Both the position numbers and the translations under genes were made by a program. From an uncultured Coprobacillus sp. (GTDB lineage: Bacteria > Bacillota_I > Bacilli_A > ML615J-28 > CAG-698): a stretch of DNA of 64,000 bases. Numbering within the stretch: the first letter of the stretch is position 1; each line of letters starts with the position of its first letter. Location of the stretch: assembly GCA_964389905.1 (NCBI GenBank), contig CAYMGD010000001.1, forward strand, positions 47,334-111,333, written 5' to 3'. The notes under the pieces were generated by a model that did no database searches, was not told the origin of the DNA, and was given only the letters and a program-made list of their open reading frames with translations. Below are positions 5,220 through 21,500 of this stretch, one piece after another.

Positions 5220-7955
5220 ATGAAAACAAAGAAATTAATAATTGTTTTATTATTTGTATTGTTATTAGGAATAGGTTGTAACCAAAATAATAATGAAGGT
5301 AGCAAATGTAAGCATGAAATTGAAAGCGTTGCAAAACAAGATGCAACGTGTACAAAAGAAGGTAATCAAGAATATTATCATTGCACTAAATGCAATAAAT
5401 ATTATACTGACAAAGAATTAACTAATGAAAAAACATATGAAGAGTTAGTTATACAAAAAACAAAACATACTGAATCCGATTGGATTATTGATAATAATGC
5501 ATCTTGTACTGAAAAAGGACTAAAACATAAGGAATGTACAGTTTGCAAAGAAAAACTTCAAGAGGAATCGATAGATATTATTAAGCATAACTATACTGAA
5601 ATTATTATTGCACCTACTTGTGATACGCAAGGATATACTCTTTATACATGTAGTTGTGGCGATGAATATAAAGATAATTATGTTGATGCTATAGGACATA
5701 ATTATAGTGATTGGGAAATACTTAATGAAGCAACTGAAAAAGAAACAGGCTTAAAGATGAGGAAATGCTTAGTTTGTAATAAACAAGAAACAGAGATTAT
5801 ACCAATGGTTAGTCATATACATAATTATACCGAAAGCACTATTGCACCAACTTGTGATACGCAAGGGTACACATTACATACATGTGCTTGCGGGGATAAT
5901 TATAAAGATAATTATTTGAGTGCAATGGGGCACACATATAATGATGAAGGTAAAATAATACTTTTAGAAAATGATAAGAAAGCTGTAACAAGATATACTT
6001 GTGATAAATGCTCATATTTCAAAGATGAAGTATACTCTGGATACTATTTACAAAGTAATGGTTTGTTTTACTTTGATTATTTTGGGAATAGAATTGATTT
6101 GAATGAAATATTTGTTGAAGTTAATGGTAATACATATTATGTAATCAACAATATAATTGTAAAAAATTATTATATGATTGATGGGACAATATATAATTTT
6201 GGTAGTGATGGTATAAAACAAGATACAATTCTTACAAACAAAATCATAACATACGGAAATGATAAATATTATGTCATTAATAATGTAATACAAAAGAATA
6301 CGTACGAAGTATATGAACAAAATATTTATTACTTTGATGAAAATGGAAAAGCTATAAAAAATACTTCATATGAAGGCTATACTTTTGGTGTGAGTGGATA
6401 TTTATTAGGAAATGATATATTAATTAAAATTAATAATGTATTATACTATGTAGTTAACAATTCAGCAAGTGTTCATAATCATACAATAGAAAATAGTCAA
6501 TATAAAGCAGCAACTTGCACAGAAAATGGTAATTATGAATATTATCACTGTACAGAATGCAATAGATATTATTCAGATAGTAATTATATGAAGGAAATTA
6601 ATGCTGATGAAATTGTTATAAAAGCAAAACATAAAGTTACAAAATATGAAAGAAAAGAAAATACTTGCGTTGATAATGGAAACATAGAGTATTTCCACTG
6701 TACAAAATGTAATAAGTATTATCAAGATAGTTCTTGTACAAAGCAAATAGAATACGAAGATACTATTATAAAAGCATCACATAATATTACTAAATATGAA
6801 GGTAAAGAATCAACTTGTACTGAACAAGGATATAAAGCATATGAAAAATGTGCAAACTGTTCATATACAACATTTGAGTCTCTTCCATTAAAAGAGCATA
6901 CACTAACTGATTGGATAATAGATACAGAAGCAACTTGCACACAAACAGGAAGTAAACATAAAGAATGTAGTGCTTGTATGAAGATAATTGAAACAGAAAC
7001 AATTGCTGCTTTAGGGCATAATTATGTCAGTAATGTATGTACAAACTGTGAAAAAATGAAAGTAGAAATTAAAGATGGATATATTTATTTTGGTGAGTAT
7101 CCTCAAACACTAAAAGAAAAAACTGTGAAAATAACAAGCACTGAACCAGATGCTGATGGCTACTATTTAGGAAGTGATGGTGAAAGATATGCTAGGGTTA
7201 CTGCTAAACCTTATAAAAATACATATTACTTTAATGACAAAGTAACTAGTATTATTGATGGTGTAACATATTACTTCAAAGTAGAACCAATTAAATGGAA
7301 AATTGAAGAAGAAGGTAGTGGCCCATATAAACTAATAAGTGATCTAATTATAGATTGCCAAATGTATTATTCATCATTAGATAACAGAACAATAGATGGA
7401 CAAACAATATACGCTAATAACTATAAATATTCTGATATAAGAAGTTGGTTAAATAATGAATTTATAAACAAAGCATTTACTGAAGACCTTCAAGAATACA
7501 TAAATACGATAGGCGTATATAATGGGGCATCATCAATGGGGGCTTCAAGTGATAAATTTGCATGTGAGAATACATATGATAAAGTGTATTTACCAAGTTA
7601 TCAAGAAATGGTAAATGTGAATTATGGCTATAGTAAAAGTGTTTCTGACTCTGATTCAGCAAGACGAAAACAAGTAACAGATTATGCTAAAGCAATGGGT
7701 TGTTATATGAATACTGGAAGTACATATTATAATAATGGTTATTATTGGCTTCGTTCACCTATTATTTATAAAGGTACAACTTATTATAATAAAGATTATA
7801 GTTCATGTAGTTATTGTGCATATAGTATAGATTATTATGGAGATATTGCTAATGGTGTATATTCTACATCGGAAGGAATTTTTTATTTTCAAAATCACGA
7901 AGTAAATAAAGAATATCGTGGTGTTGCCCCCGCTTTAACAATCCAAATCTACTAA
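5220..7955 (+). CDS. Cys-rich repeat surface lipoprotein A with a C-terminal C-type-lectin-fold (DUF1566/FGE-like) domain. Carries a degenerate VR-like 3' end.
   Basis: 911 aa. Signal peptide plus lipobox LLLGIGCN. Repeated CxxxGxxEYYHCTKCNKYY and HNYTE-I-APTC-GYT-H-C-CGD-YKD-Y modules. C-terminus YIYFGEYPQTLKE...DYAKAMG...YYWLRS...GVAPALTIQIY is paralogous to the DGR target 9319..13683. RBS AGGAGG 8 nt upstream. Sits 17 nt after the SIR2-like gene. Confidence 0.6.
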   Translation: MKTKKLIIVLLFVLLLGIGCNQNNNEGSKCKHEIESVAKQDATCTKEGNQEYYHCTKCNKYYTDKELTNEKTYEELVIQKTKHTESDWIIDNNASCTEKGLKHKECTVCKEKLQEESIDIIKHNYTEIIIAPTCDTQGYTLYTCSCGDEYKDNYVDAIGHNYSDWEILNEATEKETGLKMRKCLVCNKQETEIIPMVSHIHNYTESTIAPTCDTQGYTLHTCACGDNYKDNYLSAMGHTYNDEGKIILLENDKKAVTRYTCDKCSYFKDEVYSGYYLQSNGLFYFDYFGNRIDLNEIFVEVNGNTYYVINNIIVKNYYMIDGTIYNFGSDGIKQDTILTNKIITYGNDKYYVINNVIQKNTYEVYEQNIYYFDENGKAIKNTSYEGYTFGVSGYLLGNDILIKINNVLYYVVNNSASVHNHTIENSQYKAATCTENGNYEYYHCTECNRYYSDSNYMKEINADEIVIKAKHKVTKYERKENTCVDNGNIEYFHCTKCNKYYQDSSCTKQIEYEDTIIKASHNITKYEGKESTCTEQGYKAYEKCANCSYTTFESLPLKEHTLTDWIIDTEATCTQTGSKHKECSACMKIIETETIAALGHNYVSNVCTNCEKMKVEIKDGYIYFGEYPQTLKEKTVKITSTEPDADGYYLGSDGERYARVTAKPYKNTYYFNDKVTSIIDGVTYYFKVEPIKWKIEEEGSGPYKLISDLIIDCQMYYSSLDNRTIDGQTIYANNYKYSDIRSWLNNEFINKAFTEDLQEYINTIGVYNGASSMGASSDKFACENTYDKVYLPSYQEMVNVNYGYSKSVSDSDSARRKQVTDYAKAMGCYMNTGSTYYNNGYYWLRSPIIYKGTTYYNKDYSSCSYCAYSIDYYGDIANGVYSTSEGIFYFQNHEVNKEYRGVAPALTIQIY

Positions 7956-8081: not shown

Positions 8082-9287
8082 ATGAAAAATGCCTTTTTCT
8101 TTGGAGCAGGTGCGGAAGATATCTATGGTTTACCACTAGGTGGTGAATATGTGTTAGATACTATGATGACAAAAAAGCCAAAATTATATGATGAATTAGA
8201 AAAGTTTTACGAAGGTTCAAAAATAGAATATCAAAAGGAATTTCTATTTTCTTCAAATAGTAACACGTTTGCAAATATTTTATTGGATGCATATAAGACT
8301 TTTATAAATGAAAAAGATTATAAAAAAGATGAAAACTGTTTAATAGAAAAGATATTTAAAGATGTTGATTTTAAGTATGATGAATCTAAAAAAAAGGAAG
8401 ATATTCTAAAGAAAATAAAAGATAATTTAAGTCAAGAAAAAGATAAAGAACAATTGTTTGATATCATAATTAACAGAAAATATAATGATTCAGAATTGGA
8501 CAAGTTTTTTAAAAAATTAAAATATTATGGAACAATAGAAAAAGATTTTTCTTGCTTGCTTGATTATAATGCATATATAAAAAGAGCCTCAAGACTAATT
8601 AATTATTTTTGGAGCTGTTATTTTTCTATTTTTATACCATATCTAAAAGCATATTATGGAGAAGAAAAATTTTATAAAGAACTTTTTAATAAAGAAAATG
8701 GTAAATATAAATTTTTAAAAATTATAGAAGAATTAAAAAAAGCAAATATAAGTGATTTTAAAACAAAAAATAATGAAAAAAGTTATTACCAAGTCATAGC
8801 TGAAAAGTATACAGATAATACTTTTGCCATTACAACAAATTACACTTTCTTTGTTGAAAAAGCTTTTAAAAATAATATTTATTTAGCAGGCAAATTAGAC
8901 GAATTTGAGGAAATTGATACATTTATGGTTTCAAATGAATTGAGCAATAATTCTATTCCATTTTTATATACACAAGCTCCAATTAAACCAATTATTGCAT
9001 ATAAAACTATTGAAAAGTATTATAATGCGATGAATGAGATGAAAAATGCTAATAATATTTTTGTTATTGGGTATGGCTTTTGTAACGAGGATTCACACAT
9101 AAAAACGTTATTTTTAGAACTTAGACAACAAAATAAAAACTTAAACATAATTTATTGTGATTATGGAAGTAATGTGGAAAAAAATAGTAAATTTGAAGAG
9201 TATTTAAAAAAATTAAATGCCAAAATTGAATCATACAGTAATTGTGAAGAACTAATGAAAATAATTGATAAATATCAAATAAATTAA
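8082..9287 (+). CDS. SIR2-like (SIR2_2) domain protein B
   Basis: 401 aa. Motifs FFFGAGAEDIYGL, ITTNYTFF, VIGYGFCNEDSH. The HG position reads YLAGKL, so the conserved His appears to be replaced. Confidence 0.5.
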   Translation: MKNAFFFGAGAEDIYGLPLGGEYVLDTMMTKKPKLYDELEKFYEGSKIEYQKEFLFSSNSNTFANILLDAYKTFINEKDYKKDENCLIEKIFKDVDFKYDESKKKEDILKKIKDNLSQEKDKEQLFDIIINRKYNDSELDKFFKKLKYYGTIEKDFSCLLDYNAYIKRASRLINYFWSCYFSIFIPYLKAYYGEEKFYKELFNKENGKYKFLKIIEELKKANISDFKTKNNEKSYYQVIAEKYTDNTFAITTNYTFFVEKAFKNNIYLAGKLDEFEEIDTFMVSNELSNNSIPFLYTQAPIKPIIAYKTIEKYYNAMNEMKNANNIFVIGYGFCNEDSHIKTLFLELRQQNKNLNIIYCDYGSNVEKNSKFEEYLKKLNAKIESYSNCEELMKIIDKYQIN

Positions 9288-9318: not shown

Positions 9319-12300
9319 ATGAAAACAAGAAAACTATTGATATTTGTATTATTCATATTACTACTAGGAATAGGATGTAATAATACAAGAGAATGTGAGC
9401 ATACTATTGAAAATATTAAAGCACAAGAAGCAACTTGCATAAAGGAAGGTAATATTGAGTATTATTATTGTACTAAATGTAATAAGTATTACACTGATGA
9501 AAAATTAACTACTGAGGTAAAGCATGAAGACTTAGTGTTACAAAAAACAAGCCATACAGAATCAGATTGGATAATAGATACTGAAGCAACTTGTAGTAAT
9601 CAAGGGTTAAAACATAAAGAATGTACAGTATGTAAAGAAAAGTTACAAGAAGAAGTAATAGGAGAAACAGAACATAGTTACACTGAAACTATAATCAATC
9701 CAACATGTGAGAAAGAAGGTTATACTCTTCATAAATGTTTATGTGGCGATGAATATAAAGATACTTATGTTGAAGCCTTAGGACATACTGAAGAAATCAT
9801 TTCAGGAATTGATGCAACATGTACAGAAAGTGGCCTAACAGAAGGAAAGAAGTGTTCAGTTTGTGGAGAAATATTAGTAAAACAAGAAGTAATCAAAGCT
9901 AAAGGACATAATCATACAGAAACAGTTATAGCACCAACTTGTACAAAGCAAGGTTATACAATTCATACTTGCCACTGTGGAGATAGCTATAAAGATACTT
10001 ATGTAGATGCTTTAGGACATACTGAAGAAATCATTTCAGGATTAGATGCAACATGTACAGAAAGTGGGCTAACAGAAGGAAAGAAATGTTCAGTTTGTGG
10101 AGAAATATTAGTTAACCAAGAAGTAATAAAAGCAAAAGGTCATAATCATACAGAAACAGTTATAGCACCAACTTGTACAGAAGATGGCTATACAATTCAT
10201 AAATGCCACTGTGGAGATGAATATAAAGATACTTATGTAAATGCTTTAGGACATACAGAAGAAATCATTTCAGGATTAGAAGCAACATGTACAGAAAATG
10301 GTCTAACAGAAGGAAAGAAATGCTCAGCTTGTGGAGAAATATTAGTTAAACAAGAAGTAATAAAAATAAAAGAACATAACTATGGTGATTGGATAATAGT
10401 TAAGCCTGCAACTGAACAAGAAACAGGTTTAAAAACAAGAAAATGTCTTGACTGTGAGAAAGAAGAAACAGTAGAAATCCCAACGCTAGATCATATTCAT
10501 TCTTATGATGAAACAGTTATAGCACCAACATGTACAGAAGATGGCTATACAATTCATAAATGCCACTGTGGAGATGAGTATAAAGATACTTATGTAAATG
10601 CTTTAGGACATACAGAAGAAATTATTTCAGGATTAGAAGCAACATGTACAGAAAGTGGACTAACAGAAGGAAAGAAATGTTCAGTCTGTGGAGAAATACT
10701 AGTAAAACAAGAAGTAATCAAAGCTAAAGGACATAATCATAGTACAAGTAATATAGTGCTCTTAGATGAAGGCAATAAAGCAGTAACAAGATATTATTGC
10801 TCTAATTGTACTAGTTATAAAGATGAAATATATTCAGGATATTATTTACTAAATGATATTGCTTATGAATTTGATAATTCAGGTAATAGAATTAATTTAA
10901 ATGAATCATTTATAGAAGTAAATGGAAACACATATTATATAATTAATAATACTATTATAAAGAATTATTATATAATAGATGGAACAATCTATGACTTTGG
11001 TAGTGATGGAATAAAACAAGAAACTGTTCTAACAGATACAATTATTACATTTGAAGATAATTTATATTATGTTATTAATAACATAATCCAAAAAGAAGTA
11101 TTTATAGTTTATGAACAATGTATATATTTCTTTGATGAAACTGGTAAAGCATTAGTAAATACAACATATAATGGATATACATTTAATGCAAATGGATATT
11201 TAATAGGTAATGATATATTAATAGAAATTAACAAAGTATTATATTATGTTGTTAATAATATTGCATCAGTACATAATCATAGTTTAGAACACAAACTATA
11301 TAATCCTGCAACTTGTACAGCTGATGGTAATATAGAATATTTCTACTGCACAATATGTAATAGATTATATAAAGATAATGAATGTATTAATGAAATAACT
11401 AATGAAGATATTATTATAAAAGCATCACATAATATTACTAAATATGAAGGTAAAGAATCAACTTGTACTGAACAAGGATATAAAGCATATGAAAAATGTG
11501 CAAATTGTTCTTATACGACATTTACATATCTTCCATTAAAAGAACATACACTAACAGACTGGATAATAGATACTGAAGCAACATGTACACAAACAGGAAG
11601 TAAACATAAAGAATGTAGTGTTTGTGAGAATATTCTTGAAACAGAAACAATTGAAGTTTTTAATCATAACTATGAAAATGGAAAATGTACTATTTGTGGG
11701 AAAACACAAAACGCTTCTACAGAAAGTAAAATATGGCAAGATAATGGTTACGTTTATTTTGGAGAATATCCTCAAACACTAAAAGAAGAAAGTATAACAA
11801 TTGTTAGCGATACACCAAATAGTGATGGATATTATTTAGGTAGTGATGGTGAAAGATACGCAAAAGTTACTGCAAAACCATATAGTAGTTCATATTATTT
11901 TAATGGCAATGCATCAAAAATAGTAAAAGGAACAACATACTATTTCAAAGTAGAACCAATTAGATGGAAGATTGAAGAACAAAGTAATGACACATATAAA
12001 CTAATATGCGATTTAGTTATTGATTGTCAAATGTATTACTCATCTAAAAATGAAAGAACAATAGATGGACAAACAATATATGCTAATAATTATAAATATT
12101 CTGATATAAGAAGTTGGTTAAATAATGAATTCTTAAACAAAACATTTACTGAAGATCTTCAAGAATATATAAATGTAACAGAAGTTGATAATAGTGCTTT
12201 ATCAACTGGGTATTCAGAAAATGAATATGTTTGCGAAAACACAATGGATAAAATATATTTACCAAGTTACGAAGAAATGTGTAAATATGCATATGGTTAT

Positions 12301-13683
12301 AGTACTGATTCATTAGAAAAAGATTATGCAAGGCAAAAACAACTAACAGATTATGCCAAAGCAATGGGATGTAGTATGAATACAACTGATGACTATTACA
12401 ATAGTGGCAGCTATTGGCTTCGTTCATCAACAAACTATATAGGTACATATGTACGTGGAGTAAGCACAGATGGTTATGTATTTAATGATTATATTAATCA
12501 TAGTGGCGTTGGTGTTATTCCTTCAATGTCAATAACAAAAGATAATATTCCTTTTATGCATAATATAGTAAAGTGCGAAGGAAAAGAATCTACATGTACA
12601 GAATATGGATACGAACCATACGAAAAATGTATTGATTGTTCATATACAACATTTACATATCTTCCATTAAAAGAGCATACATTAACAGACTGGATAATCG
12701 ATTCACAAGCAACTTGTATGCAAACTGGAAGTAAACATAAAGAATGTACAGTATGTGAAAATGTTGTTGAGACGGAAACAATAGAAGCAATTGGTCATAA
12801 TTATATTAATAATATATGCACAAAATGCAATATTAAAAGGATTGAAGTTGGCGATAAAGAAATCTTAATAGGTACAGGTTATATCTATTTTGGCGAATAT
12901 CCTCAAACACTAAAAGAAGAAAGTGTAACAATTGTTAGTGATGCACCAGATAGTGATGGCTATTATCTAGGTAGTGATGGCGAAAGATATGCGAAAGTTA
13001 CTGCAAAACCATATCCTTATCCTTATAGTTCATATTACTTTAATGATAAAACAACAAAAATAGTAAAAGGAACAACATACTATTTCAAAGTTGAACCAAT
13101 TAGATGGAAAATTGAGGCACAAACCAATAGTACATATAAACTAATAAGTGATTTAATTATTGATTGTCAAAAATATCATTCATCAACATCAACAAGAACA
13201 ATAGATGGAAAAACAATATGTGCTAATAATTATGAATATTCTGATATAAGAAATTGGTTAAATAATGAATTCTTAAACAAAGCATTCCAAGAAGTTCTTC
13301 AAGAATATATAAATGTAACAGAAGTAGATAATAGTGCTTCATCAACTGAGTATTCAGAAAATAAATATGCTTGTGAAAATACAATGGATAAAATATATTT
13401 ACCAAGCCGTGCAGAAATGCTAAAAGCAGAATATGACTATAGAACAAGTTCTGGAGAAGATACAGCAAGACAAAAGCAACTAACAGATTATGCTAAAGCA
13501 ATGGGATGTTTTATGAATACAACTGATGATTACTACAATAACGGTTATTATTGGCTTCGCTCGCCTTTCAGCGACGACTCGGACGGCGCGTACTTCGTTC
13601 ACTACTATGGCAATGTGCGCAACTACTACGTCTACGACGTCAGCATTGGCGTCGCCCCCGCTTTAACAATCCAAATCGACTAA
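9319..13683 (+). CDS. DGR target protein. Cys-rich repeat surface lipoprotein B with two C-type-lectin-fold domains; the C-terminal one carries the variable repeat.
   Basis: 1454 aa. Lipoprotein signal LLLGIGCN. Internal 78-aa tandem repeats. Two copies of the YxYFGEYPQTLKE...YYWLRS module. The last 110 nt of the coding sequence match the TR apart from adenine positions. Confidence 0.8.
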   Translation: MKTRKLLIFVLFILLLGIGCNNTRECEHTIENIKAQEATCIKEGNIEYYYCTKCNKYYTDEKLTTEVKHEDLVLQKTSHTESDWIIDTEATCSNQGLKHKECTVCKEKLQEEVIGETEHSYTETIINPTCEKEGYTLHKCLCGDEYKDTYVEALGHTEEIISGIDATCTESGLTEGKKCSVCGEILVKQEVIKAKGHNHTETVIAPTCTKQGYTIHTCHCGDSYKDTYVDALGHTEEIISGLDATCTESGLTEGKKCSVCGEILVNQEVIKAKGHNHTETVIAPTCTEDGYTIHKCHCGDEYKDTYVNALGHTEEIISGLEATCTENGLTEGKKCSACGEILVKQEVIKIKEHNYGDWIIVKPATEQETGLKTRKCLDCEKEETVEIPTLDHIHSYDETVIAPTCTEDGYTIHKCHCGDEYKDTYVNALGHTEEIISGLEATCTESGLTEGKKCSVCGEILVKQEVIKAKGHNHSTSNIVLLDEGNKAVTRYYCSNCTSYKDEIYSGYYLLNDIAYEFDNSGNRINLNESFIEVNGNTYYIINNTIIKNYYIIDGTIYDFGSDGIKQETVLTDTIITFEDNLYYVINNIIQKEVFIVYEQCIYFFDETGKALVNTTYNGYTFNANGYLIGNDILIEINKVLYYVVNNIASVHNHSLEHKLYNPATCTADGNIEYFYCTICNRLYKDNECINEITNEDIIIKASHNITKYEGKESTCTEQGYKAYEKCANCSYTTFTYLPLKEHTLTDWIIDTEATCTQTGSKHKECSVCENILETETIEVFNHNYENGKCTICGKTQNASTESKIWQDNGYVYFGEYPQTLKEESITIVSDTPNSDGYYLGSDGERYAKVTAKPYSSSYYFNGNASKIVKGTTYYFKVEPIRWKIEEQSNDTYKLICDLVIDCQMYYSSKNERTIDGQTIYANNYKYSDIRSWLNNEFLNKTFTEDLQEYINVTEVDNSALSTGYSENEYVCENTMDKIYLPSYEEMCKYAYGYSTDSLEKDYARQKQLTDYAKAMGCSMNTTDDYYNSGSYWLRSSTNYIGTYVRGVSTDGYVFNDYINHSGVGVIPSMSITKDNIPFMHNIVKCEGKESTCTEYGYEPYEKCIDCSYTTFTYLPLKEHTLTDWIIDSQATCMQTGSKHKECTVCENVVETETIEAIGHNYINNICTKCNIKRIEVGDKEILIGTGYIYFGEYPQTLKEESVTIVSDAPDSDGYYLGSDGERYAKVTAKPYPYPYSSYYFNDKTTKIVKGTTYYFKVEPIRWKIEAQTNSTYKLISDLIIDCQKYHSSTSTRTIDGKTICANNYEYSDIRNWLNNEFLNKAFQEVLQEYINVTEVDNSASSTEYSENKYACENTMDKIYLPSRAEMLKAEYDYRTSSGEDTARQKQLTDYAKAMGCFMNTTDDYYNNGYYWLRSPFSDDSDGAYFVHYYGNVRNYYVYDVSIGVAPALTIQID
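9781..10740 (+). repeat. Near-identical 234-bp (78-aa) tandem coding repeats (3 contiguous units plus a 4th after a ~120-bp insert)
   Basis: Units begin GGACATAC(T/A)GAAGAAATCATTTCAGG at 9781, 10015, 10249 and 10605, about 90-95% identical at DNA level (GHTEEIISG-DATCTESGLTEGKKCSVCGEILVKQEVIKAKGHNHTETVIAPTCT-GYTIH-CHCGD-YKDTYV-ALG). Confidence 0.8.
13549..13660 (+). repeat. DGR variable repeat (VR), in frame at the 3' end of 9319..13683
   Basis: 112 nt align to the TR at 14201..14312. There are about 21 mismatches; all but one lie where the TR has A (TR AAC codons vs VR TTC/AGC/GAC/GGC/CAC/TAC/CGC). Confidence 0.85.
13641..13680 (+). promoter_or_regulatory. IMH-like element (GC-rich ATTGGCGTCGCCCCCG core plus VR-specific CTTTAACAATCCAAATC)
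   Basis: The 14-nt GC-rich core is shared with the TR 3' end. The flanking 3' sequence differs (TR: ATTTATCTTAC), as expected for IMH vs IMH*. Confidence 0.6.
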
Positions 13684-13701
13684 AAGGAGATAAATCAATG
13701 G

Positions 13702-13745
13702 GGTTGGCCTCTCTAATCTTAAGCTTTAGCTTAGAGAGGCCAACC
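13702..13745 (+). repeat. Perfect 15-bp inverted repeat (hairpin/cruciform) 18 nt downstream of the VR stop
   Basis: GGTTGGCCTCTCTAA - 14 nt loop - TTAGAGAGGCCAACC. No T-run follows, so it is not a typical terminator. Matches the position of the hairpin that assists DGR retrohoming. Confidence 0.7.
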
Positions 13746-13762
13746 AGAAAAATTTAGAAAAA

Positions 13763-14146
13763 ATGCCAAAAATAAGAAAAGAAACAGAATTAAGAGTTAT
13801 AACAAGTACTAAAAAATTAGTTGATTATGTATTAACAGTAACAGAAAAAAGTCCTAAAAAGTATAGATACACTTTTGTAGAGAGAATTCATACTATATTA
13901 TTTGATTTAGTTGAATGTCTTTATAGAGCTAATATTGAAAAATTAGGAAATCCTAAAAGACAAGAATATCAAAAAGATGCATTAGTATGCTTACAGTTAC
14001 TAGATTATTTTTGTGATATTGCAGTTGATGAGAAATGTTTAATATTTAGACAATATGAAAACATATCAGAAATGATTTGTACAACAACTAATTTATTAAA
14101 TAGTTGGATATTAAGTGATTTAAGAAGAATCAATGAAAAGAAATAA
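13763..14146 (+). CDS. avd: DGR accessory variability determinant (Avd-like four-helix-bundle protein)
   Basis: 127 aa, basic and predicted helical. Sits between the VR and TR as in canonical DGR cassettes. Confidence 0.65.
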   Translation: MPKIRKETELRVITSTKKLVDYVLTVTEKSPKKYRYTFVERIHTILFDLVECLYRANIEKLGNPKRQEYQKDALVCLQLLDYFCDIAVDEKCLIFRQYENISEMICTTTNLLNSWILSDLRRINEKK

Positions 14147-14200
14147 TAATAATAATAATAATTATTATTATGGGGATAAGGTTGTAAAACTAGTGGAGGG

Positions 14201-14312
14201 TATTGGCTTCGCTCGCCTAACAACAACAACTCGAACAACGCGTACAACGTGAACAACAATGGCAATGTGAACAACAACAACGTCAACAACGACAACATTG
14301 GCGTCGCCCCCG
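14201..14312 (+). repeat. DGR template repeat (TR), AAC-codon rich
   Basis: TATTGGCTTCGCTCGCCT then AAC AAC AAC AAC TCG AAC AAC GCG TAC AAC GTG AAC AAC AAT ... ATTGGCGTCGCCCCCG. Non-coding, between avd and the RT. Confidence 0.85.
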
Positions 14313-14513
14313 ATTTATCTTACTAGTAGATGAAATAATCTATGGATTTACAGAATAATATTTTAGGTAAAATATTACAGTTTTAAGATAAAGGAACTTT
14401 ATTCCCTGTTATTAAATAACTAAATATAACCACTTGTACTAGTGACTTCATTAATGAATTTACTAGTTGAGCATAATGAATGTCAAGTGGTTTTCTTTTT
14501 TAAAGGAAGACTT

Positions 14514-15521
14514 ATGAAAACATATGATGAAGTATTCACATTTAGAAATCTATACAAAGCTCATAAAAAGGCAAGACTTTCCAAAAGAAACAAAAAAGAA
14601 GTCATTGAATTTGAGTTAGATGTTGGTAATAATATTTGGAAGCTAAAAAAGGAACTTAATAATCGAACTTACAAAGTGAAAGATTATCATCACTTTATGA
14701 TATACGAACCAAAGAAACGAAAAATAGAAGCATTATCATATAGTGATAGAGTACTTCAACACTGTATTGTTGATGAGTATTTGATGGAAATATTAGAAAG
14801 ACATCTAATATATGATAATGGTGCTTGTAGGAAGGGAAAAGGAACAGATTTCTGCAGAAAAAGAGTTAAATCCTTTCTTACTTCCTTCTACAAACAACAT
14901 AACATAAATGGCTACGTTTTACAGTTTGATATTCATCATTACTTCGAATCAATTAAACATAATATCCTAAAAGAAAAGATTAAGAAAATTGTTAAAGAAA
15001 AAGAAATCTTAAGTTTATTGAATGCAATAATAGATTCATATTCAGATTATGAAAATTCTGGTTTACCAATAGGAAATCAAACAAGCCAATGTTTTGCATT
15101 ATATTATTTAGATGGAATAGATCGCCTCATCAAAGGAAAATATCAAATGAAGTATTATTCAAGATATATGGATGATGGCATTATCATATGTGAAAGTAAA
15201 GATAAAGTAAGAAGTTTATTAAATGATATTACTAAAGAATGTGAAATAATAGGACTAAAACTTAATGAAACTAAAACAAGAATATATAAGTTAAAAGAAG
15301 GATTTACGTATTTAGGTTTTAGATATATGATTTTATCTAATGGCAAAATACTAATGAAAATACCCAAAGCTAAAAAACAAAGAATAAAAAGATATTTAAA
15401 AACATTAGATGATACAAAAGATAGAATAGTTTTCTATAAAGATTATTTATTAAAAGGTAATAATTATATGTTTTATCAAACAATTAGAAATAATACAAAA
15501 AGGAAGAAATATGGAAACTAA
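14514..15521 (+). CDS. DGR reverse transcriptase
   Basis: RT motifs including YMDDGII (motif C) and the DGR-typical IGNQTSQ motif. RBS AAAGGAAG before the ATG at 14514; the six-frame ORF extends back to 14442. Confidence 0.8.
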   Translation: MKTYDEVFTFRNLYKAHKKARLSKRNKKEVIEFELDVGNNIWKLKKELNNRTYKVKDYHHFMIYEPKKRKIEALSYSDRVLQHCIVDEYLMEILERHLIYDNGACRKGKGTDFCRKRVKSFLTSFYKQHNINGYVLQFDIHHYFESIKHNILKEKIKKIVKEKEILSLLNAIIDSYSDYENSGLPIGNQTSQCFALYYLDGIDRLIKGKYQMKYYSRYMDDGIIICESKDKVRSLLNDITKECEIIGLKLNETKTRIYKLKEGFTYLGFRYMILSNGKILMKIPKAKKQRIKRYLKTLDDTKDRIVFYKDYLLKGNNYMFYQTIRNNTKRKKYGN

Positions 15522-16650
15522 TAAACTAAATAATTCATTATTTGATAGAATAAAAGAAGTTCTTGAAGATAGAAAAATAATTAATAATAACGATTATAAT
15601 AATGTTAAAGGATTTGTTAATAAAGAAGATAAAACTGCGGGTTATATTAAAGAATTATTTAAAAGTGTTGGGCTAGAAAGTAAAATCATTAGTAAAAATT
15701 ATATAAAAAATAGTTTATCTAATAAAATTACTCACACTTTATTCACGTTCTTTTTGGGACTATTAGTATGTAAATTCGATGATTTAGAAACTAAAATAGA
15801 AAAAGAATATGAAAAATATTTTAAGGAAAAAGACAATATATTTCTAAAAGTATGGACAATAACTTCCATCTTTCATGATTATGGATATGCATATATCACA
15901 AAAAATAAAGACAAATTGCAAGGAATAGAAGAATTGTCAAAAATAAAGGTTGATAATAATATATTTGAATATGAGTATGAAAATGAGGAAATACGTTATT
16001 CAAGAAACTTGTTAGAAGCATATTTTAGTGAATTTGCAAAGAAAAAGAAAAAAGCAACAGACGAAAAAGATAAAGAGGAGTATTTAGAACACGGAACTAT
16101 AGGTGGATATGTACTGTTTGATGAAATGATAAAGAATAAAATGAAGTTTAATGATGTTGATGATAATTATTTATATCAAAATATCTGTTATCGAATAATG
16201 GAACATAACATATGGAAAATAACAGATGATAATAAATTCTTTGATGAATTTGATAAAGAAAAAGTTCAAGAAGTTTATAAAAATAATTTTAAAATAATTT
16301 ATGATAATGAACCTTTATTATTTTTATTATCATTATGTGATACGATAGAACATGTAAAAAAACTACACACAAAAAATAAAAAAGGTAAAACCGCTAATAC
16401 ACGTGTAACAACTTTTGCAAAGAAAATAGGATTTGAAGTTACTAGTGATAGTATATCTATAAATTATATAGATGTGAAAAAGGAAGTAGAAACGGGAATA
16501 AAAAAAAGGAAAGCAGAACAAAAAGAAGATGATCCAGAACCGGAAAATGAATTCGAGAAATGGAAAAGTGGTATTATAGGATTAAATGGATGGGTTAACG
16601 TTGATATCGATGATAGTGATGAAAAATGGACAATATCGAAAAAATCATAA
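15511..16650 (+). CDS. HD-domain-like hypothetical protein, paralog B. Overlaps the RT stop by 11 nt.
   Basis: 379 aa, paralog of 2308..3408 with the same H/HD/H/H/D motif pattern. The ATGGAAACTAA start overlaps the RT TAA, which argues for translational coupling to the DGR RT. Confidence 0.45.
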   Translation: METNKLNNSLFDRIKEVLEDRKIINNNDYNNVKGFVNKEDKTAGYIKELFKSVGLESKIISKNYIKNSLSNKITHTLFTFFLGLLVCKFDDLETKIEKEYEKYFKEKDNIFLKVWTITSIFHDYGYAYITKNKDKLQGIEELSKIKVDNNIFEYEYENEEIRYSRNLLEAYFSEFAKKKKKATDEKDKEEYLEHGTIGGYVLFDEMIKNKMKFNDVDDNYLYQNICYRIMEHNIWKITDDNKFFDEFDKEKVQEVYKNNFKIIYDNEPLLFLLSLCDTIEHVKKLHTKNKKGKTANTRVTTFAKKIGFEVTSDSISINYIDVKKEVETGIKKRKAEQKEDDPEPENEFEKWKSGIIGLNGWVNVDIDDSDEKWTISKKS

Positions 16651-16735
16651 TCAGAATATCTATACTACAGTATTTATAACTAAAATATAAAATACAATAA
16701 ATAATTAATATGCAATGCATTATACGAGGAAAATT

Positions 16736-17809
16736 ATGAACACTAATGAAAATACTGAAAAAATAAAGTTTTTTAGAGGAGAGTCTAAAGAATATGAACA
16801 ACCGTGTACACCAACGCTTTTTAGATTCTTGAATGGATGTAATAATTTACTATTACTTGAGAAGGCTTATTATGAACTTTCTATGAATCATATAAATATG
16901 TTTAATTTTACATCAAAAAAAGATGAACTATTGAAGTATATATATAATGTATGCTTTATGCAACATTATGGCTTTGGTACTAGGCTACTTGATATCACTG
17001 AAACAAAAGATGTAGCATATTATTTCGCTAGTTGTTCAAATTTTGATCGAGATGGATATGTTTATTCATTTGAGGTAAGTGAGGATATGAAGTTTTTTAA
17101 GAGTGCTGAAGCAGAAACAGTAAGAAGAAAGTTCTTATGTATTAAAAATATAAGTACAGAAAATAAATGCATTATCAATCTCATTGAGAATGAGACAGAT
17201 AATGTCATTCGTTATAATACTATAACTAACAATGCAATATTAAAGTATGAAAGTTTATTTGATATTTTGCCAGAAAATATAAGATATCAAAGACAAAATG
17301 GAGCATTCATTGTCCCAGGCAACAGATTAGAAGGTGATAACATTAGTGATGAACATAATGTTATAATGGGGAAAAAAGAAAATCTAGTTAAAAGCATTGA
17401 TAAAATAGATGAGTTATATAAACTATGTTTCGAAAATGATAAACATATAAATCACGTATATTTATTTCCAGATGACGATAATAGTTTATACCTTTGTTCT
17501 AGATATAATCTATTTATAAATAGTTACTATAATCAAAAAAGTAATTTATTTAAAAATATTTACACTAAGTTTTACCTAGATAATGATGAAAGTAAATATC
17601 CTAAAGAGCATTTTGAAAACAATTCAGTTTTATTTGAAGAATTAACCAATGAATATGCATTTTATTTTTTCTTTATTGAAATGAAAGATTGTTTATTCTA
17701 TATATTAGAAGATGCAACTAAAATTAATAAGTTTTTCAAAGAAAATAAAGAAAAAACTATCAAAGAACTAATTGAACAAGCAAAAAAACTTATAAGAGGA
17801 AAATTATGA
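16736..17809 (+). CDS. FRG-domain protein
   Basis: N-terminal FFRGESKEYEQPCTPTLFR and QHYGFGTRLLDITETKDVAYYFA match the FRG-domain consensus (FRGq ... QHYGLPTRLLDWT ... AlyFA). RBS GAGGAAA before the ATG at 16736; an alternative ATG lies at 16715. Confidence 0.5.
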   Translation: MNTNENTEKIKFFRGESKEYEQPCTPTLFRFLNGCNNLLLLEKAYYELSMNHINMFNFTSKKDELLKYIYNVCFMQHYGFGTRLLDITETKDVAYYFASCSNFDRDGYVYSFEVSEDMKFFKSAEAETVRRKFLCIKNISTENKCIINLIENETDNVIRYNTITNNAILKYESLFDILPENIRYQRQNGAFIVPGNRLEGDNISDEHNVIMGKKENLVKSIDKIDELYKLCFENDKHINHVYLFPDDDNSLYLCSRYNLFINSYYNQKSNLFKNIYTKFYLDNDESKYPKEHFENNSVLFEELTNEYAFYFFFIEMKDCLFYILEDATKINKFFKENKEKTIKELIEQAKKLIRGKL

Positions 17810-18180: not shown

Positions 18181-18486
18181 AAGCATCTATTCCTTCAAAA
18201 GGATTACTATTTTGATTTTCACCATAAACTTTATATAAAAACCTAATCTTAAAAGTTGCCTTATGTAAGGCATCTTTTACTTTGGAAAACAACTGTGAAA
18301 ACTTTTTAAAGGATTGTTTATGGACTAAAAAATATCATAATGACTTTTTACTTAATTTTGTTTAGGTGAATCCTTTTATACGTGTATAATTATTATACAA
18401 AATTTAGGTATAAAGATATATAAAAATTGTATATTAATATATATAAAATCGTCTTGATAATAGTAGGCATTTGTAGTATAATTTAT

Positions 18487-18512
18487 ATGTTGTATAATAC
18501 ATTATACAACAT
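18487..18512 (+). promoter_or_regulatory. Perfect 12-bp-arm palindrome containing TATAAT, in the promoter region of the large surface protein gene
   Basis: ATGTTGTATAAT-AC-ATTATACAACAT, 26 nt upstream of the RBS. Candidate operator overlapping the -10. Confidence 0.35.
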
Positions 18513-18537
18513 ATATAACATCATAAAAGGAGAAATT

Positions 18538-21500
18538 ATGAGAGAAAAAAACAAGCATACTTATTCCCATTTAATGGGAGTTATTTTTAAAAAGGTAATT
18601 TTGATTGCAATAGTGATTTTGCTATGTGGTGCAATCTTTATACCACTGGAAAGTAATAAATTAAATGCTAAGATTGTAATCGAAGAAGATGAAACTGCAA
18701 TACCAACAATTGATACTTCGACTATTATTCCTGGTTCAAAGCCAACAGGAACAACAACAGCAGCACAAGCAGCTGCAAATTATGTGACGAATTTGGCTGT
18801 TGATTTAACAATTCTTCCTGAAACAATAACACCTACAACTTCAACATTTTCGAATCTTTGTACAGGTGCTATTACATGGATTGCTAATAGAGCACTTAAA
18901 GAATTTACTTCTTATGTTATTTCAGAAGATATAGATGTATTGAGTGATTTTCTTATTGCTGTGCAAGATCCAGCAACAAGAGCAGAAATGCAACATAAAG
19001 CTCTAGTTAAAGAAATTGCTACGATTGTAAAAGATATACAAGTAAGTGTAAATAAAATATCAAGTCAACTTGATGAAGTAGCAGATGAACTTGGGAAATA
19101 CGAAACAGCTAATGCGTATGAACGTGCAACAATTAGTTTACGTGATAATTACACACAAAAGTATCAAGCTGCTTGGTCAAATTATCAAAAAGTTGTAGAG
19201 ATAGGATTAGAACTTGATAATCTTGAAAAAAAATATCCAGAAAGCAGTCGAACTGACTCTCAAACAGCTGAAATTGAGGCGTTAGAATATGCCCTTGAAG
19301 TTGCAACTGAAATGTATATTAGTACTGCGAAAAATTTGGATTTTCTTACTGATATCCAAACTATTTCAGGAACTTTTTGGGATCCTAACAATAAAACATC
19401 TTCTTATTTAGGAGCATACGAAGCATTCTTGCGAGAAAGATATACTTTTGAGCATCAAATAATTGACAATTTTGGAGTAGCTATTTCTTCTTGTGTCGAT
19501 TTGTATAATGAAATATTTGTTCTTTATACTGAATATTATACATATTTAAAAGAAAAAGCTGAAGAAAATGGTGATTTTGAAACATATAAACTTTATACTG
19601 AAAATTATTTCAATAATATAAAATATAGTATTACGCAAAATATAAATGCGATGGTTGAATCTATTGGTGTAAGTAGTTGGTTAGTTGAAGATAAACTTAC
19701 TCAAGATGAAATAGACCAAGCAATGGAAATTTATTCTGATTTTACAGAACCAGAAACTATCAATTATAAAGTTTCAATTAATGGTACAACTTATAACTCA
19801 TATCGAGTAAGAGCAAATAAAGATCTTCAATATTATATTATTCTAAAAAAATCTTTTACAGGACGTGATTTAGTTACAGGTTATTCGATAACTGAAAGAA
19901 CCAACGGAGCATCTAAATTTGTTCTTTATCGTCCAGAGTTTATGTTTAATGGACAATATACCGATGATGGTCAATTTAAGATGATATCATCACTTAAGGA
20001 ACTTTCATTTATTAGTAATAGTTGGACAAATCTTAGAGCATCACTTCGTGATGATTATGGTGGTAATTTATCAGGCTTATCAGCTGATATAAATAAAGTT
20101 CTTTTGTATAATTTTGAATGGACAGAATCACTAAATGCTGCTTCAACTTATGCAAGTTGGCCGATGAAATTTAGTAGTATTGATCTTAGTAATATTGATG
20201 TTGAAGTTGAAGATGTAAAAGCAAGAGCAGTTTACGAAGGCAACACTAGTTATCAAGCAATGGTAATTTATAAAGATATTGTAACTTCTATGAGTTATGA
20301 TAAGACTGGAACAAAAAAGATTAATGATGTGGATAATCTATCAAATAGAGTATTCCATGTATCTTATGGCCAAACATTTGATATATCTTCACTAACAAAA
20401 GATGCATCTAATGTTACTATTTATATAACAGGTTCAGCTACAATAAAATCTAATCCTAAAATTAAATTAAATAATTCGAATATTATTATTTGTAATACTG
20501 ATGAAAGTGATGTTGTTGAGTTAGAGAACGTTAATGTTGTCGCAACAAAACTTAGTGAAGCAGCTTTAAAAATTAAAACTGCATGTACTGTAAAAATGAC
20601 AGGTACTAACACATTTGTAGGAACAGCTAGTGTTAGTAGTACAACAAATCGTGATGAATTTTATATGAATTATACAAAAACGCGACCAATATTTGCTAGC
20701 CATGGAATCATGACTGATGGCAATGTTACGTTAACAGGTGGTGGAAAAGTTGTCGCAACAGGTAAAGATGGGGGAGCAGGTATTTGCTTTAATAGTGGAA
20801 ATCTTACAATTGATAATCTTACATTAGAAGCAACTGGTTCAAAACTTGTTAATGACGTAATTACAGTTGGTGCAGGTATTGGCTCTTGTGTTTCATTCTA
20901 TATTAAAACATATACTGATACAACGACATGGGTTGTATCAAAACAAAATACTTTCATTTCGAAAAATGGTTTAATTTATCGAGGTGACTCGGGAAAAACA
21001 GGAACTGGAGTACTTTCAATTGTTGATTCAACGGTTAGTGCTTATGGTAGTGATGTTTACCAAAATGCAAAAATCAGTAAACCAGTTACAGTTGAAGATA
21101 TCGGTGGAGTAGAATTAACTGTTGGTGTCGATCCTAAAGGAGAAAGCGAAGAATGGCATTACTACTGTATGAAGGGTGGAACAATCAGAAATAGCACGAT
21201 AACAACTAAAAGTGCATCTATAACTTCAAGAATTGATAAGAAAGATGTGGAAAATGTGTTTAATCCAGAAGAAATAAAGATATCAGCATTTACAAAAGGC
21301 TCTAACGGAGTTACAACTGATGGAATTTCTTTTAAACTTTACGGAACAAAAGGAGAAAGTGATTGGATTGAAGCAAGTGAGATTGGTAACGATAAAGGGG
21401 ATTCTTCACAAACTGTTTTAGGAAAAACTGTTGGTGAAATAACAAAAGTTGATTTTAAAACTAATGCAGATAATGCTTGGTGGGCTGGTAAAATTACAAT

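Follow-up and report, generated by a model that had tools for sequence, protein, structure and literature searches.

The window, the whole stretch of 64,000 nucleotides that was analysed, is from an uncultured, low-GC gut bacterium that is Bacilli/Acholeplasma-like and Acholeplasmataceae-like. Its forward strand carries a gene for a large predicted surface lipoprotein, followed by a small accessory gene, a non-coding repeat and a reverse transcriptase (RT) gene (Table 1). All parts of this cassette are present and intact, with three unbroken open reading frames (ORFs) and catalytic motifs kept. The first-pass annotation had read the order variable repeat (VR), avd, template repeat (TR) and RT as canonical for a diversity-generating retroelement (DGR), and the coordinates were confirmed; target-avd-TR-RT is the commonest DGR architecture.

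Table 1. Features of the cassette, in window coordinates (Sp, spacer).
Feature	Position	Strand	Remarks
Target gene	9319..13683	+	1454-aa predicted surface lipoprotein; Cys-rich repeats, two DUF6273 domains
Variable repeat (VR)	13549..13661	+	Codons 1411-1448 of target gene
GC-rich VR 3' end GGCGTCGCCCCCG, IMH-like	13648..13660	+	Identical to TR 14300-14312; sequences diverge downstream
Four strand-specific AATC motifs	13668, 13674, 13693, 13715 (13668..13718)	+	Last opens hairpin loop
Post-VR hairpin or cruciform	13702..13745	+	Perfect 15-bp stem, 14-nt loop
avd, accessory variability determinant	13763..14146	+	127 aa, pI 8.8
Pre-TR strand GGGGAUAAGGUU	14172..14183	+	12 bp with 14395-14406, brackets TR
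Template repeat (TR)	14201..14313	+	Non-coding, between avd and RT as in relatives
TR 3' flank strand UUUAUCUUA	14314..14322	+	Pairs with 14384-14392, predicted template:primer duplex, 9 bp
Sp hairpin 1 (UAGAU-GAAAUA-AUCUA)	14327..14342	+	Helix 3: 3/8 pairs changed on both sides
Sp hairpin 2 (UAAUAUUUUA-GG-UAAAAUAUUA)	14356..14377	+	Helix 4: 4/9 pairs changed on both sides
Primer strand UAAGAUAAA, then GG linker	14384..14394	+	AAAGG-type core; pairing register
Sp strand AACUUUAUUCCC	14395..14406	+	Partner of 14172-14183
Short stem-loop GUUAU-UAA-AUAAC, then A-rich single strand UAAAUAUAA	14408..14429	+	Predicted by single-sequence fold
Long bipartite 3' stem	14430..14501	+	14430-14436/14484-14490 and 14437-14445/14459-14467, then U-run
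DGR reverse transcriptase	14514..15521	+	335 aa; FDIHHYF, IGNQTSQ, YMDD motifs

Base-by-base alignment of VR 13549-13660 with TR 14201-14312 (112 nt each) gave 22 mismatches, 21 of which fall on TR adenines (A to T, 10; A to G, 9; A to C, 2). The sole exception, G in TR and T in VR at 13599, lies at codon position 3 and is synonymous (GTG/GTT, Val). No mismatch has its adenine on the VR side, and the difference between the repeats is directional. By the hypergeometric distribution, 21 or more of 22 mismatches would fall on the 40 adenine positions with P = 8e-11, which bears out the adenine confinement proposed in the first-pass annotation and is at odds with mismatches spread evenly over the four bases. 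Every adenine change in VR is at codon position 1 or 2 of an AAC or AAT codon, and 71 of 72 non-adenine positions are the same in TR and VR. The proportion of changed TR adenines (52%) equals the approximately 50% measured in vitro and in vivo for bRT-Avd from the DGR in Bordetella phage BPP-1. The repeat probably extends by one base, as TR A14313 and VR C13661 would make a 22nd adenine change and bring the mismatches to 23. TR 14201-14313 has 41 adenines and, in the VR frame, 16 AAC and 2 AAT codons, and no adenine substitution in it can reach a stop codon. An earlier description of TR as almost entirely AAC is right as to its richness in this codon but overstated, given the invariant scaffold codons interspersed among its approximately 38 codons. 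Similarly, the VR does lie in the 3' end of the target gene, but it is not the last 112 nt, as had been thought; 23 nt including the stop codon come after it. No second VR matching TR was found in the window, where the repeat is unique.

Both repeats end in the same GC-rich block and diverge after it, as annotated: the VR flank (CTTTAACAATCC...) is coding (..ALTIQID*), and RNA pairing holds the TR flank (ATTTATCTTAC...). A perfect hairpin, its 15-bp arms at 13702-13716 and 13731-13745, was also found where it had been placed, 18 nt past the TAA stop; it lies 41 nt past the GC-rich block and has a folding z of -3.75. Given the absence of a T-run after it, this hairpin is not an intrinsic terminator of the + strand. 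Classical post-VR hairpins have a 7-10-bp stem and a 4-nt GRNA loop (8 bp and GAAA in BPP-1), whereas the stem here is 15 bp and the loop 14 nt long. Such a loop is unusual, a tetraloop being usual; homing was lost in BPP-1 when the loop was made 2 nt longer. In sub-clade relatives the post-VR hairpin has a stem of 10-12 bp, unrelated in sequence, and its loop of 13-19 nt starts (A/C)ATC(A/T). Furthermore, AATC occurs 3.1 times per 90 nt after the VR in 18 sub-clade loci; the figure is 0.57 for random windows and 0.33 when the reverse complement GATT is counted.

The assignment of the target as a lipoprotein is plausible from its sequence, in which MKTRKLLIFVLFILLLGIGC ends in a lipobox-like cysteine. 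Diversification is limited to its C-terminal DUF6273 domain, a published DGR target domain. This domain models as a C-type-lectin (CLec) fold, and the VR occupies residues 157-195 of the model, comprising the last four strands and loops. Paralogous DUF6273 genes lie nearby. The adjacent paralogue is not diversified, and its stretch equivalent to the VR (186 nt, 29% G+C) has no TR match. The G+C content of the VR is 58%, compared with 29% for the target gene and 28% for the genome; a VR so unlike both its own gene and the corresponding stretch of the paralogue argues that it was recently written from TR.

The 127-aa ORF had been proposed to be Avd, and profile searches agree: it passes the Pfam bAvd threshold (44.7 bits; threshold 40) and matches PHROG 3206 'Avd protein of DGR' at E = 4.5e-19, with 51 bits against NCBIfam DivGenRetAVD, under the equivalog cut-off of 80. 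No PDB entry matches it in sequence, and tblastn found Avd homologues in 142 of the examined loci. The RT gene has a Shine-Dalgarno sequence (AGGAAG) at 14504-14509. The YMDD and DGR-specific IGNQTSQ motifs noted earlier are at residues 218 and 186, and in 30 RT relatives there is no variation at P185, G187, N188, Q189, S191, Q192, Y218, D220 or D221. Among solved structures the RT is best matched by the 328-aa 'Reverse transcriptase' chain of 8ub7-8ube (E = 3.8e-30), in our reading the RT of the Bordetella phage DGR (bRT), whereas group II intron and retron-type RTs reached only about 5e-13 in the PDB comparison. Intact DGR-type avd and RT genes, and a repeat pair with adenine-only divergence, are established by this analysis.

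A TR-bracketing duplex, a template:primer duplex, two hairpins and a long 3' stem covary across relatives. In the helix model 95% of cells are paired, compared with 41-53% when partners are slid, and 24 pairs are changed on both sides, compared with 2-7 in the slid controls; the observed values were not equalled in any of 500 shuffles. From six sequences, RNAalifold independently arrived at the same six helices, long-range duplexes included. Cognate strands exceeded non-cognate ones in 51 of 57 non-redundant loci for the bracketing duplex 14172-14183/14395-14406 (p = 6e-10) and in 51 of 57 loci for the duplex 14314-14322/14384-14392 (p = 2e-9). The stem of Sp hairpin 2 is quite different in sequence in four relatives (L010, L013, L018 and L020), and the long 3' stem (helices 5 and 6) is paired in 100% of cells, with 13 of 19 pairs altered in both partners. 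In a scan of 80 RT genes, most had an AAAGG(A/G)-type core upstream.

This RNA resembles that of BPP-1 in its stem-loop(s), template:primer duplex, 2-nt linker, pre-TR duplex, short stem-loop with adenosines and long 3' stem, and it shares the order seen by cryo-EM of the BPP-1 RNP (primer strand, 2 nt, Stop-duplex strand, short stem-loop, A-rich strand, long stem). By analogy, the pre-TR duplex is the putative counterpart of the avd:Sp 'cPRT Stop' duplex of Bordetella DGR RNA, although the pre-TR strand lies inside avd in BPP-1 and in the avd-TR intergenic spacer here. The short stem-loop matches in position the short stem-loop and adenosines of the BPP-1 cPRT Stop. One hairpin separates TR from the primer strand in BPP-1, but two are present here; Sp hairpin 1 is, by position and by analogy with Handa et al. 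only, a candidate Avd-binding stem-loop. The long 3' stem would, by position, be the counterpart of the RT-binding stem, and with its U-run it may be the end of the DGR RNA. Priming is predicted to start from A14392, the last A of the AAA right before the invariant GG, on the model of BPP-1 (Sp A56 / TR G117), and the first template base is predicted to be A14313 or G14312. We infer this cis-priming, the roles of individual hairpins and that of the post-VR hairpin from the Bordetella phage DGR. No Rfam family reached its gathering score on the spacer, where RT-14 (RF02921) gave a weak match at 14340-14472 (28.8 bits; gathering score 48.1), and none of the relatives tested reached the gathering score of the Rfam RT motifs. 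RT-14 and RT-10, both RT-associated motifs (Weinberg et al., 2017), also lie between TR and the RT gene, RT-10 being the corresponding motif in BPP-1. The spacer aligns with RT-14 over its full length, with shared CAGA...ACAGU, UAAAGGxxUUUAUUCC, UAGU and GAAU segments, but the Rfam model is without long-range pairings to the TR flanks.

Apart from the Avd and RT families, no phage-family match was found in the flanking ORFs tested (2308 to 22962), and the remainder of the window consists of chromosomal genes. The RT shares 38-47% identity with relatives on phage contigs and 69-76% with those in cellular Bacilli/'Mollicutes' MAGs, in keeping with the chromosomal, non-phage DGR that had been suggested. 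The cassette sits among Abi-like and candidate defence genes. An adenine-biased TR/VR pair of their own was found in 61 of 81 loci of RT relatives, mostly in the same VR-avd-TR-RT order. L008 and L009 have 24 differences in the 110-nt VR (21 at TR adenines) and 4 in the next 1790 nt, and L045 and L047 have 22 differences in 7173 nt, of which 20 are in the VR, all at TR adenines. Variation between near-identical relatives is thus all but confined to TR-adenine sites of the VR, which indicates that the clade is active. This VR-restricted variation, the covarying RNA helices and the target-domain fold are likewise established here. A single NCBI contig carries these exact RT and Avd proteins, and searches for a further strain or read set found none; we infer the present-day activity of this copy from the Bordetella phage DGR.

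The prototype DGR of BPP-1 (mtd-avd-TR-brt) has the same gene order, a VR at the target 3' end, Avd, adenine-only mismatches, a GC-rich block common to the VR and TR 3' ends, an inverted repeat after the VR and an RT with I/LGxxxSQ and YMDD motifs, with which the present RT aligns (8ub7). However, it is phage-borne and its target is the Mtd tail fibre, whereas the element here is chromosomal and its target is a lipoprotein with a DUF6273-type CLec domain. Cellular DGRs diversifying surface lipoproteins are known from Legionella pneumophila (LdtA) and Treponema denticola (TvpA). Their CLec sub-family is FGE-sulfatase/DUF1566-type rather than DUF6273; in comparison with these systems, the present host is low-GC and Bacilli/Acholeplasmataceae-like, the element lacks any HRDC or MutS-like accessory gene, and the target is much larger, with a second, non-diversified DUF6273 domain. 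DGRs of gut Bacillota and their phages (Faecalibacterium prophages; 'tentaclins') share the target domain family, a VR placed at the DUF6273 C-terminal end, a CLec-like model and a related RT family, but their targets are phage receptor-binding or decoration proteins. MAGs with the nearest RT relatives carry similar lipoprotein targets (e.g., the 987-aa target of L009).

The element is very probably a complete DGR of target-avd-TR-RT architecture on the chromosome, an interpretation upheld by separate tests of Avd, RT, relatives and phage context. It is exceedingly improbable that the RT is of some other class (group II intron, retron or defence-associated DRT) and the repeat pair an unrelated duplication. 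The top NCBIfam matches are indeed group II intron RT (117.9 bits) and Drt3a (77.9 bits), PADLOC DRT models score up to 92 bits, and defence-like genes surround the cassette, but the RT falls far under the curated NCBIfam cut-offs for these matches (300 and 200 bits) and under those for retron RTs, and Rfam finds no group II intron or retron RNA in the whole window. With Avd adjoining, a DGR RT as best solved relative, TR/VR pairs beside the RT relatives and the mismatch pattern, this alternative is refuted for practical purposes. There is equally little room for the view that a low-complexity Asn-rich segment was duplicated by chance or recombination, without reverse transcription. The simple AAC unit of TR and the nearby paralogues would suit it, yet the directionality statistics, with mismatched A in one copy only, already refute it; moreover, the non-coding copy lies exactly between avd and RT, the paralogue's equivalent region is AT-rich and lacks a TR match, and a tandem-repeat account predicts no covarying RNA round TR, where such RNA is present.

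An intact but presently silent DGR, which wrote the VR in the past and is now unexpressed or non-mutagenic in this lineage, is unlikely, though less so than the foregoing. It accords with the failure to find other strains or reads of this element and with the failure to identify a convincing promoter, and the synonymous difference at 13599 could be a post-homing point mutation. Against it, the ORFs, catalytic motifs and RNA helices are all intact and close relatives are demonstrably variable; furthermore, a VR of such G+C content in this genome, identical to TR at all but one non-adenine position, implies little time since the last homing.

The favoured reading, a DGR, is of an ordinary, well-made member of a large family already known, apparently working and rewriting a large surface lipoprotein at its tip. 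In the proposed mechanism, a transcript from just past avd through TR and the approximately 200-nt Sp would fold into a defined structure, with the 12-bp duplex bracketing TR and nine bases (14314-14322) paired with 14384-14392. A14392 of the invariant AAA-GG would thereby be placed as cis-primer beside the first template bases A14313/G14312. RT and pentameric Avd would copy TR to cDNA, faithfully at C, G and U and with any base opposite roughly half the adenines, and this cDNA would replace VR 13549-13661, guided by the GC-rich 3' block common to both repeats and by the hairpin close by. Up to 23 codons would be recoded in the C-type-lectin-fold tip of the 1454-aa protein, allowing approximately 1e24 theoretical protein variants, none with a stop codon.

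The element at the 3' end of the target lipoprotein gene is very probably a canonical and complete diversity-generating retroelement (DGR), and both the observation and the interpretation of the first-pass annotation hold. An adenine-confined repeat pair, a reverse transcriptase (RT), an in-frame variable repeat (VR) at the 3' end of the target gene, Avd, an IMH with an inverted repeat, the RNA elements and a C-type-lectin (CLec) fold were all found. The base-by-base comparison recommended by that annotation aligns the VR (13549-13660) with the non-coding template repeat (TR; 14201-14312) over 112 nt with 22 mismatches, of which 21 lie at TR adenines and one is a G/T difference, as had been described. 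This sole non-adenine mismatch (TR G, VR T at 13599) falls at codon position 3 and is synonymous (GTG/GTT). At the 21 adenine sites the VR carries T ten times, G nine times and C twice; A stands on the VR side in none of the mismatches, and the divergence is therefore directional. Given 40 adenines among the 112 TR positions, the probability of at least 21 of 22 random mismatches falling on adenines is P = 8e-11. The base after the repeat also differs (TR A14313, VR C13661) and, if counted, brings the total to 22/23 mismatches at TR adenines. A TTTA beyond these positions is common to both copies, and the functional 3' end of the TR is placed at 14313 because of the RNA pairing evidence.

The VR is in frame and occupies codons 1411-1448 of the 1454 codons of the target gene, with every adenine change at codon position 1 or 2. 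Read in the same frame, the TR holds 16 AAC and two AAT codons, from which no adenine substitution can produce a stop codon. Changes are seen at 52% of the TR adenines, matching the value published for the Bordetella enzyme, which alters approximately 50% of adenines in vitro and in vivo (PMC6182149). The 13-nt GC block (IMH; 13648-13660 in the VR, 14300-14312 in the TR) is the same in both repeats and the sequences flanking it diverge; the GC-rich IMH, its differing 3' flanks and the downstream inverted repeat are thus all present as annotated. The VR has a G+C content of 58%, compared with 29% for the surrounding gene and 28% for the window. Scanning both strands with adenines masked revealed no second copy of the TR in the window.

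The proteins encoded downstream of the VR agree with this reading. The 127-aa product of avd (13763-14146), which had been put forward for a search against Avd models, matches the Pfam bAvd family (44.7 bits; threshold 40) and PHROG 3206, 'Avd protein of DGR' (E = 4.5e-19), is basic (pI 8.8) and scores below the NCBIfam equivalog cut-off (51 vs 80 bits). Avd is found in approximately 74% of DGRs. The coordinates of the genes and the YMDD and IGNQTSQ motifs of the RT (335 aa; 14514-15521) were reproduced. The best match of the RT in the Protein Data Bank is the 328-aa RT chain of 8ub7-8ube (E = 3.8e-30, residues 4-300 aligned), entries that we take to correspond to the cryo-EM structures of Bordetella phage bRT by Handa et al. 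The IGNQTSQ motif lines up with IGSLTSQ of the 8ub7 chain, and P185, G187, N188, Q189, S191, Q192, Y218, D220 and D221 do not vary across 30 aligned relatives. Judged by its sequence, the protein is predicted to be a DGR-clade reverse transcriptase with intact catalytic motifs.

Other classes of reverse transcriptase were weighed against this assignment, including the group II intron and retron origins that the first-pass annotation had named as competing outcomes. Members of these two classes do match the RT in the Protein Data Bank search, but only at approximately 5e-13, and all matches to the NCBIfam group II intron, retron and defence-associated RT (DRT) models lie far under their cut-offs. 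The group II intron model TIGR04416 gives 117.9 bits, where the cut-off is 300, and Rfam detects no intron RNA in the window, while the retron St85 model reaches 49.5 of 235 bits and the DRT model Drt3a 77.9 of 200 bits, neither with an Rfam match; the assignment to the DGR clade is preferred. An open reading frame at 15511-16650 (379 aa), which shares 11 nt with the 3' end of the RT gene, was examined as a potential accessory gene of the DGR and discarded. Pfam, NCBIfam, PHROGs and PADLOC contain no family that it matches, and it probably lies outside the DGR, since no homologue occurs beside any of approximately 160 related RT loci.

The sequences flanking the TR are conserved among relatives and can be arranged into an RNA map (see table). 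In the Bordetella RNA, an Avd-binding stem-loop is followed by a template:primer duplex between the TR and the spacer (Sp) that extends to the priming adenosine, then by two linker nucleotides and an avd:Sp duplex termed the 'cPRT Stop', and finally by a short stem-loop with adenosines, a single-stranded 'thumb ring' and a long RT-binding stem (Handa et al., bioRxiv 10.1101/2023.10.23.563531). The elements of the window RNA occur in the same order. By analogy with that RNA, A14392 would be the priming nucleotide and A14313/G14312 the first template bases, and the 23rd mismatch (13661) would therefore be explained.

Positions of the RNA elements and adjoining signals of the DGR (window coordinates, + strand)
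Element	Sequence	Position
Pre-TR strand	GGGGAUAAGGUU	14172-14183
TR		14201-14313
TR flank strand	UUUAUCUUA	14314-14322
Hairpin 1		14327-14342
Hairpin 2		14356-14377
Primer strand	UAAGAUAAA	14384-14392
Linker	GG	14393-14394
Sp strand, partner of the pre-TR strand	AACUUUAUUCCC	14395-14406
Short stem-loop and A-rich strand		14408-14429
Long bipartite stem		14430-14490
U-run		14491-14501
Shine-Dalgarno sequence		14504-14509
RT start codon		14514

Both long-range duplexes are supported by comparison across loci. In 51 of 57 non-redundant loci each, a strand's own partner gave a more stable duplex than the partners of other loci (p = 6e-10 for the pre-TR:Sp duplex, p = 2e-9 for the TR flank:primer duplex). 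These tests used short strands; whole-region RNAduplex on long segments gave multi-loop interactions. Compensatory changes are numerous in the listed duplexes (e.g., GGGGAUUCGAUU/AAUCGGAUUCCC and GGGAUAGGGUU/AACCCUAUUCC), and RNAalifold recovered the same helices from six sequences without guidance. In this six-sequence alignment 95% of cells are paired, compared with 41-53% in controls whose partners were shifted by 1-3 columns; 24 of 56 pairs have changed on both sides, compared with 2-7 in these controls, and none of 500 shuffles reached the observed values. Most of the 80 related RT genes that were scanned are also preceded by an AAAGG(A/G)-type core, typically 100-250 nt before the start codon.

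The spacer RNA resembles the Rfam family RT-14 (RF02921), which aligns over 14340-14472, but is not a member by the Rfam criterion (28.8 bits vs a gathering score of 48.1; E = 0.04 for the 371 nt searched). At the gathering threshold there were no Rfam matches in the window, in 15 genomic relatives or in 14 viral relatives. Such RT motifs were earlier proposed to be parts of DGRs (Weinberg et al.). Within 14393-14406 the invariant GGAA...UUCC spacer core can fold into a local 4-bp hairpin or, alternatively, take part in the 12-bp long-range pairing to the pre-TR strand. These two structures are mutually exclusive, which makes a conformational switch conceivable.

Searches with the RT returned 522 homologues at E <= 1e-10. 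The nearest are 76% identical (Logan assemblies), followed at 69-71% by proteins from metagenome-assembled genomes (MAGs) labelled Bacillota, Bacilli, 'uncultured Mollicutes', Coprobacillus and Ca. Enterosoma; RTs on phage contigs reach at most 47% identity. Contigs of the relatives were found by an alignment-based scan, a scan with the single RT sequence giving no match. A diagonal scan that tolerated mismatches only at adenines of the RT-proximal copy recovered the window's own repeat pair and showed that 61 of 81 genomic loci of RT relatives have an adenine-biased TR/VR pair, many of the pairless loci being contigs truncated on the upstream side of the RT. Most pairs show the order VR-avd-TR-RT, with a TR-VR offset of approximately 580-940 nt (652 in the window). 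As its relatives share the pair, order and offset, the window element is one ordinary representative of a large clade of DGRs. The order target-avd-TR-RT is 'architecture B' of Wu et al., the commonest, and is common to the Bordetella and Legionella elements.

Hypervariability of the VR between strains, which the first-pass annotation had suggested looking for, was observed in relatives. Between L008 and L009, loci from two MAGs whose RTs are 69% identical to the window RT, there are 24 differences in the 110-nt VR, 21 of them at TR adenines, compared with only four in the next 1790 nt (avd, TR, spacer and RT). Similarly, the loci L045 and L047 have 22 differences in 7173 nt, of which 20 fall within the VR, all at TR adenines. 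For the window's own element no second strain or copy was found: exact-protein look-ups of the RT, Avd and protein P0001 gave no contig on record, and metagenome DNA scans with the 3' half of the TR/VR (adenines masked) and with the IMH and VR flank gave no match. We infer that the window element is active from its intact parts, the 52% adenine substitution and the 58% G+C VR in a 29% G+C gene. Several contigs with the closest RT relatives (L001-L007) start inside or just before avd, right after the expected VR position, and the VR/TR repeat or VR heterogeneity may be what interrupts these assemblies.

The perfect hairpin with 15-bp arms annotated after the stop codon was confirmed; it has a 14-nt loop and lies 41 nt downstream of the GC block. 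Classical DGR hairpins have GC-rich stems of 7-10 bp and 4-nt GRNA loops at 4-34 bp from the VR, and in BPP-1 homing was abolished by two extra loop bases (PMC3240598). The window hairpin is unlike these in geometry. In the sub-clade nearest the window, stems of 10-12 bp with unrelated sequences carry loops of 13-19 nt starting with (A/C)ATC(A/T), whereas more distant relatives have classical 3-4-nt loops (GAAA, GCA, GTA). Of the post-VR regions, 26% contain a perfect stem of 10 bp or more, compared with 1% of control windows. A role as a terminator was rejected, given that a T-run is absent after the hairpin both here and in 17 relatives.

Among the 4-mers of the 90 nt that follow the VR (L008-L031 and L069, loci of RT relatives), AATC is the most frequent, with 3.1 copies per locus compared with 0.57 in control windows and with 0.33 copies of the reverse complement, GATT. 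The window has a strand-specific AATC cluster at 13668-13718, and one motif always stands at the start of the large hairpin loop. Part of the excess may derive from ATC Ile codons of the conserved C-terminal strand. A tentative and rather doubtful proposal is that the sub-clade uses a target-site signal unlike the classical one, comprising a 10-15-bp stem of free sequence, a 13-19-nt loop with an (A/C)ATC(A/T) start and 1-3 preceding strand-specific AATC motifs. Either the RT-Avd-RNA particle or a host factor might recognise these motifs by their sequence. If such a distinct DNA signal exists, the determinants of the cDNA landing site would differ between DGR lineages. A relation between the hairpin loop and the Sp single strands, sought by eye as AATCA-like words or 5-nt complementarity, was too weak to claim.

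The target (1454 aa) begins with a lipoprotein-type signal, MKTRKLLIFVLFILLLGIGC, which presumably satisfies the PROSITE lipobox rule, and it is predicted to be a lipoprotein. It contains Cys-rich repeats and two DUF6273 domains. A model of its last 200 residues, built from a 48-sequence alignment, has a pLDDT of 95.9 and places the VR at model residues 157-195, in the last four strands and their loops. In this model the variable protein adopts a CLec ligand-binding fold with the VR on its surface. That DGRs target DUF6273, and that this domain has a CLec-like model, has been documented before. L009, the nearest relative with a full upstream region, diversifies a 987-aa lipoprotein with a terminal DUF6273 among ordinary chromosomal genes.

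Two genes upstream of the target lies a paralogous 911-aa lipoprotein gene (5220-7955) with a C-terminal DUF6273. The start (TATTGGCTTCGTTCACCT) and end (GGTGTTGCCCCCGCTTTAACAATCCAAATC) of its VR-like stretch (approximately 7745-7935) resemble the VR region and its middle of approximately 186 nt is AT-rich (29% G+C) without a TR match. The stretch has the look of the diversified segment in an unwritten state. The target's second, internal DUF6273 domain is located at 12121-12738 (..YWLRSSTNYIGTYVRGVSTDGYVF..). Both this domain and the paralogue's 7745-7935 stretch were considered as further DGR targets and rejected, as the TR matches neither; hence one of three DUF6273 domains in two paralogous genes is diversified. 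Between the two lipoprotein genes, a 401-aa open reading frame (8082-9287) has faint SIR2-like PADLOC matches only (E ~2e-4) and no match in Pfam, NCBIfam or PHROG.

The location is chromosomal: the window encodes an Fe-only hydrogenase, a GNAT acetyltransferase, FeoB, a Liv-type ABC transporter, a CCA-adding-type nucleotidyltransferase, an amidase-domain wall protein and a BspA-type LRR protein, and contains no tRNA or Rfam families. FeoB, which is encoded with the RT on one 150,130-bp NCBI contig, shares 77% identity with proteins labelled Bacilli and Acholeplasmataceae, and Logan assemblies contain relatives of it at 96-97% identity. In line with the earlier remark that phage genes are absent, no tested flanking open reading frame matches a phage structural family. 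The surroundings of the DGR are rich in Abi-like and candidate defence genes and insertion sequence (IS) fragments, and the DGR looks to be embedded in a defence or variable island. Upstream is a weak AbiH-like protein (3881-5203); downstream, an FRG-domain protein matching the PADLOC candidate system PDC-S15 (16715-17809; E = 1e-19) is followed by a 1511-aa protein with PLAT/LH2 domains (18427-22962). The region 23266-28176 holds truncated and full YhcG/DUF1016 PDDEXK nuclease genes, an AbiEi-like regulator, a Mu-transposase C-terminal domain fragment and an IS21 IstB ATPase, and these genes are mobile-element remnants. Further defence-type genes occur at 37590-40484 and 59310-61334 (AbiLi-like, E = 1e-30; AbiD/Abi_2, E = 2e-38; an AbiEii nucleotidyltransferase; an HNH endonuclease).

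The element is a new member of a large clade that was already known, and it leaves the current understanding of DGRs unchanged. What is added is a covariation-supported RNA map, the fold of the target domain, evidence of activity in the nearest relatives and a large-loop hairpin with AATC repeats. The RNA map and its approximately 57 covarying relatives carry the model of DGR priming that is based on cryo-EM over to low-GC Bacillota, and the map could aid the design of compact DGR RNAs for engineered mutagenesis. The two adjacent paralogues, with one of their three DUF6273 domains diversified, provide a natural control for the effect of DGR writing on composition. This further example of a cellular, non-phage DGR acts on a very large surface lipoprotein and comes from a poorly known, uncultured gut lineage that is Bacilli/Acholeplasmataceae-like; as a DGR-diversified surface protein of such a host, the target is a candidate for an adhesin or receptor that is adapting rapidly.
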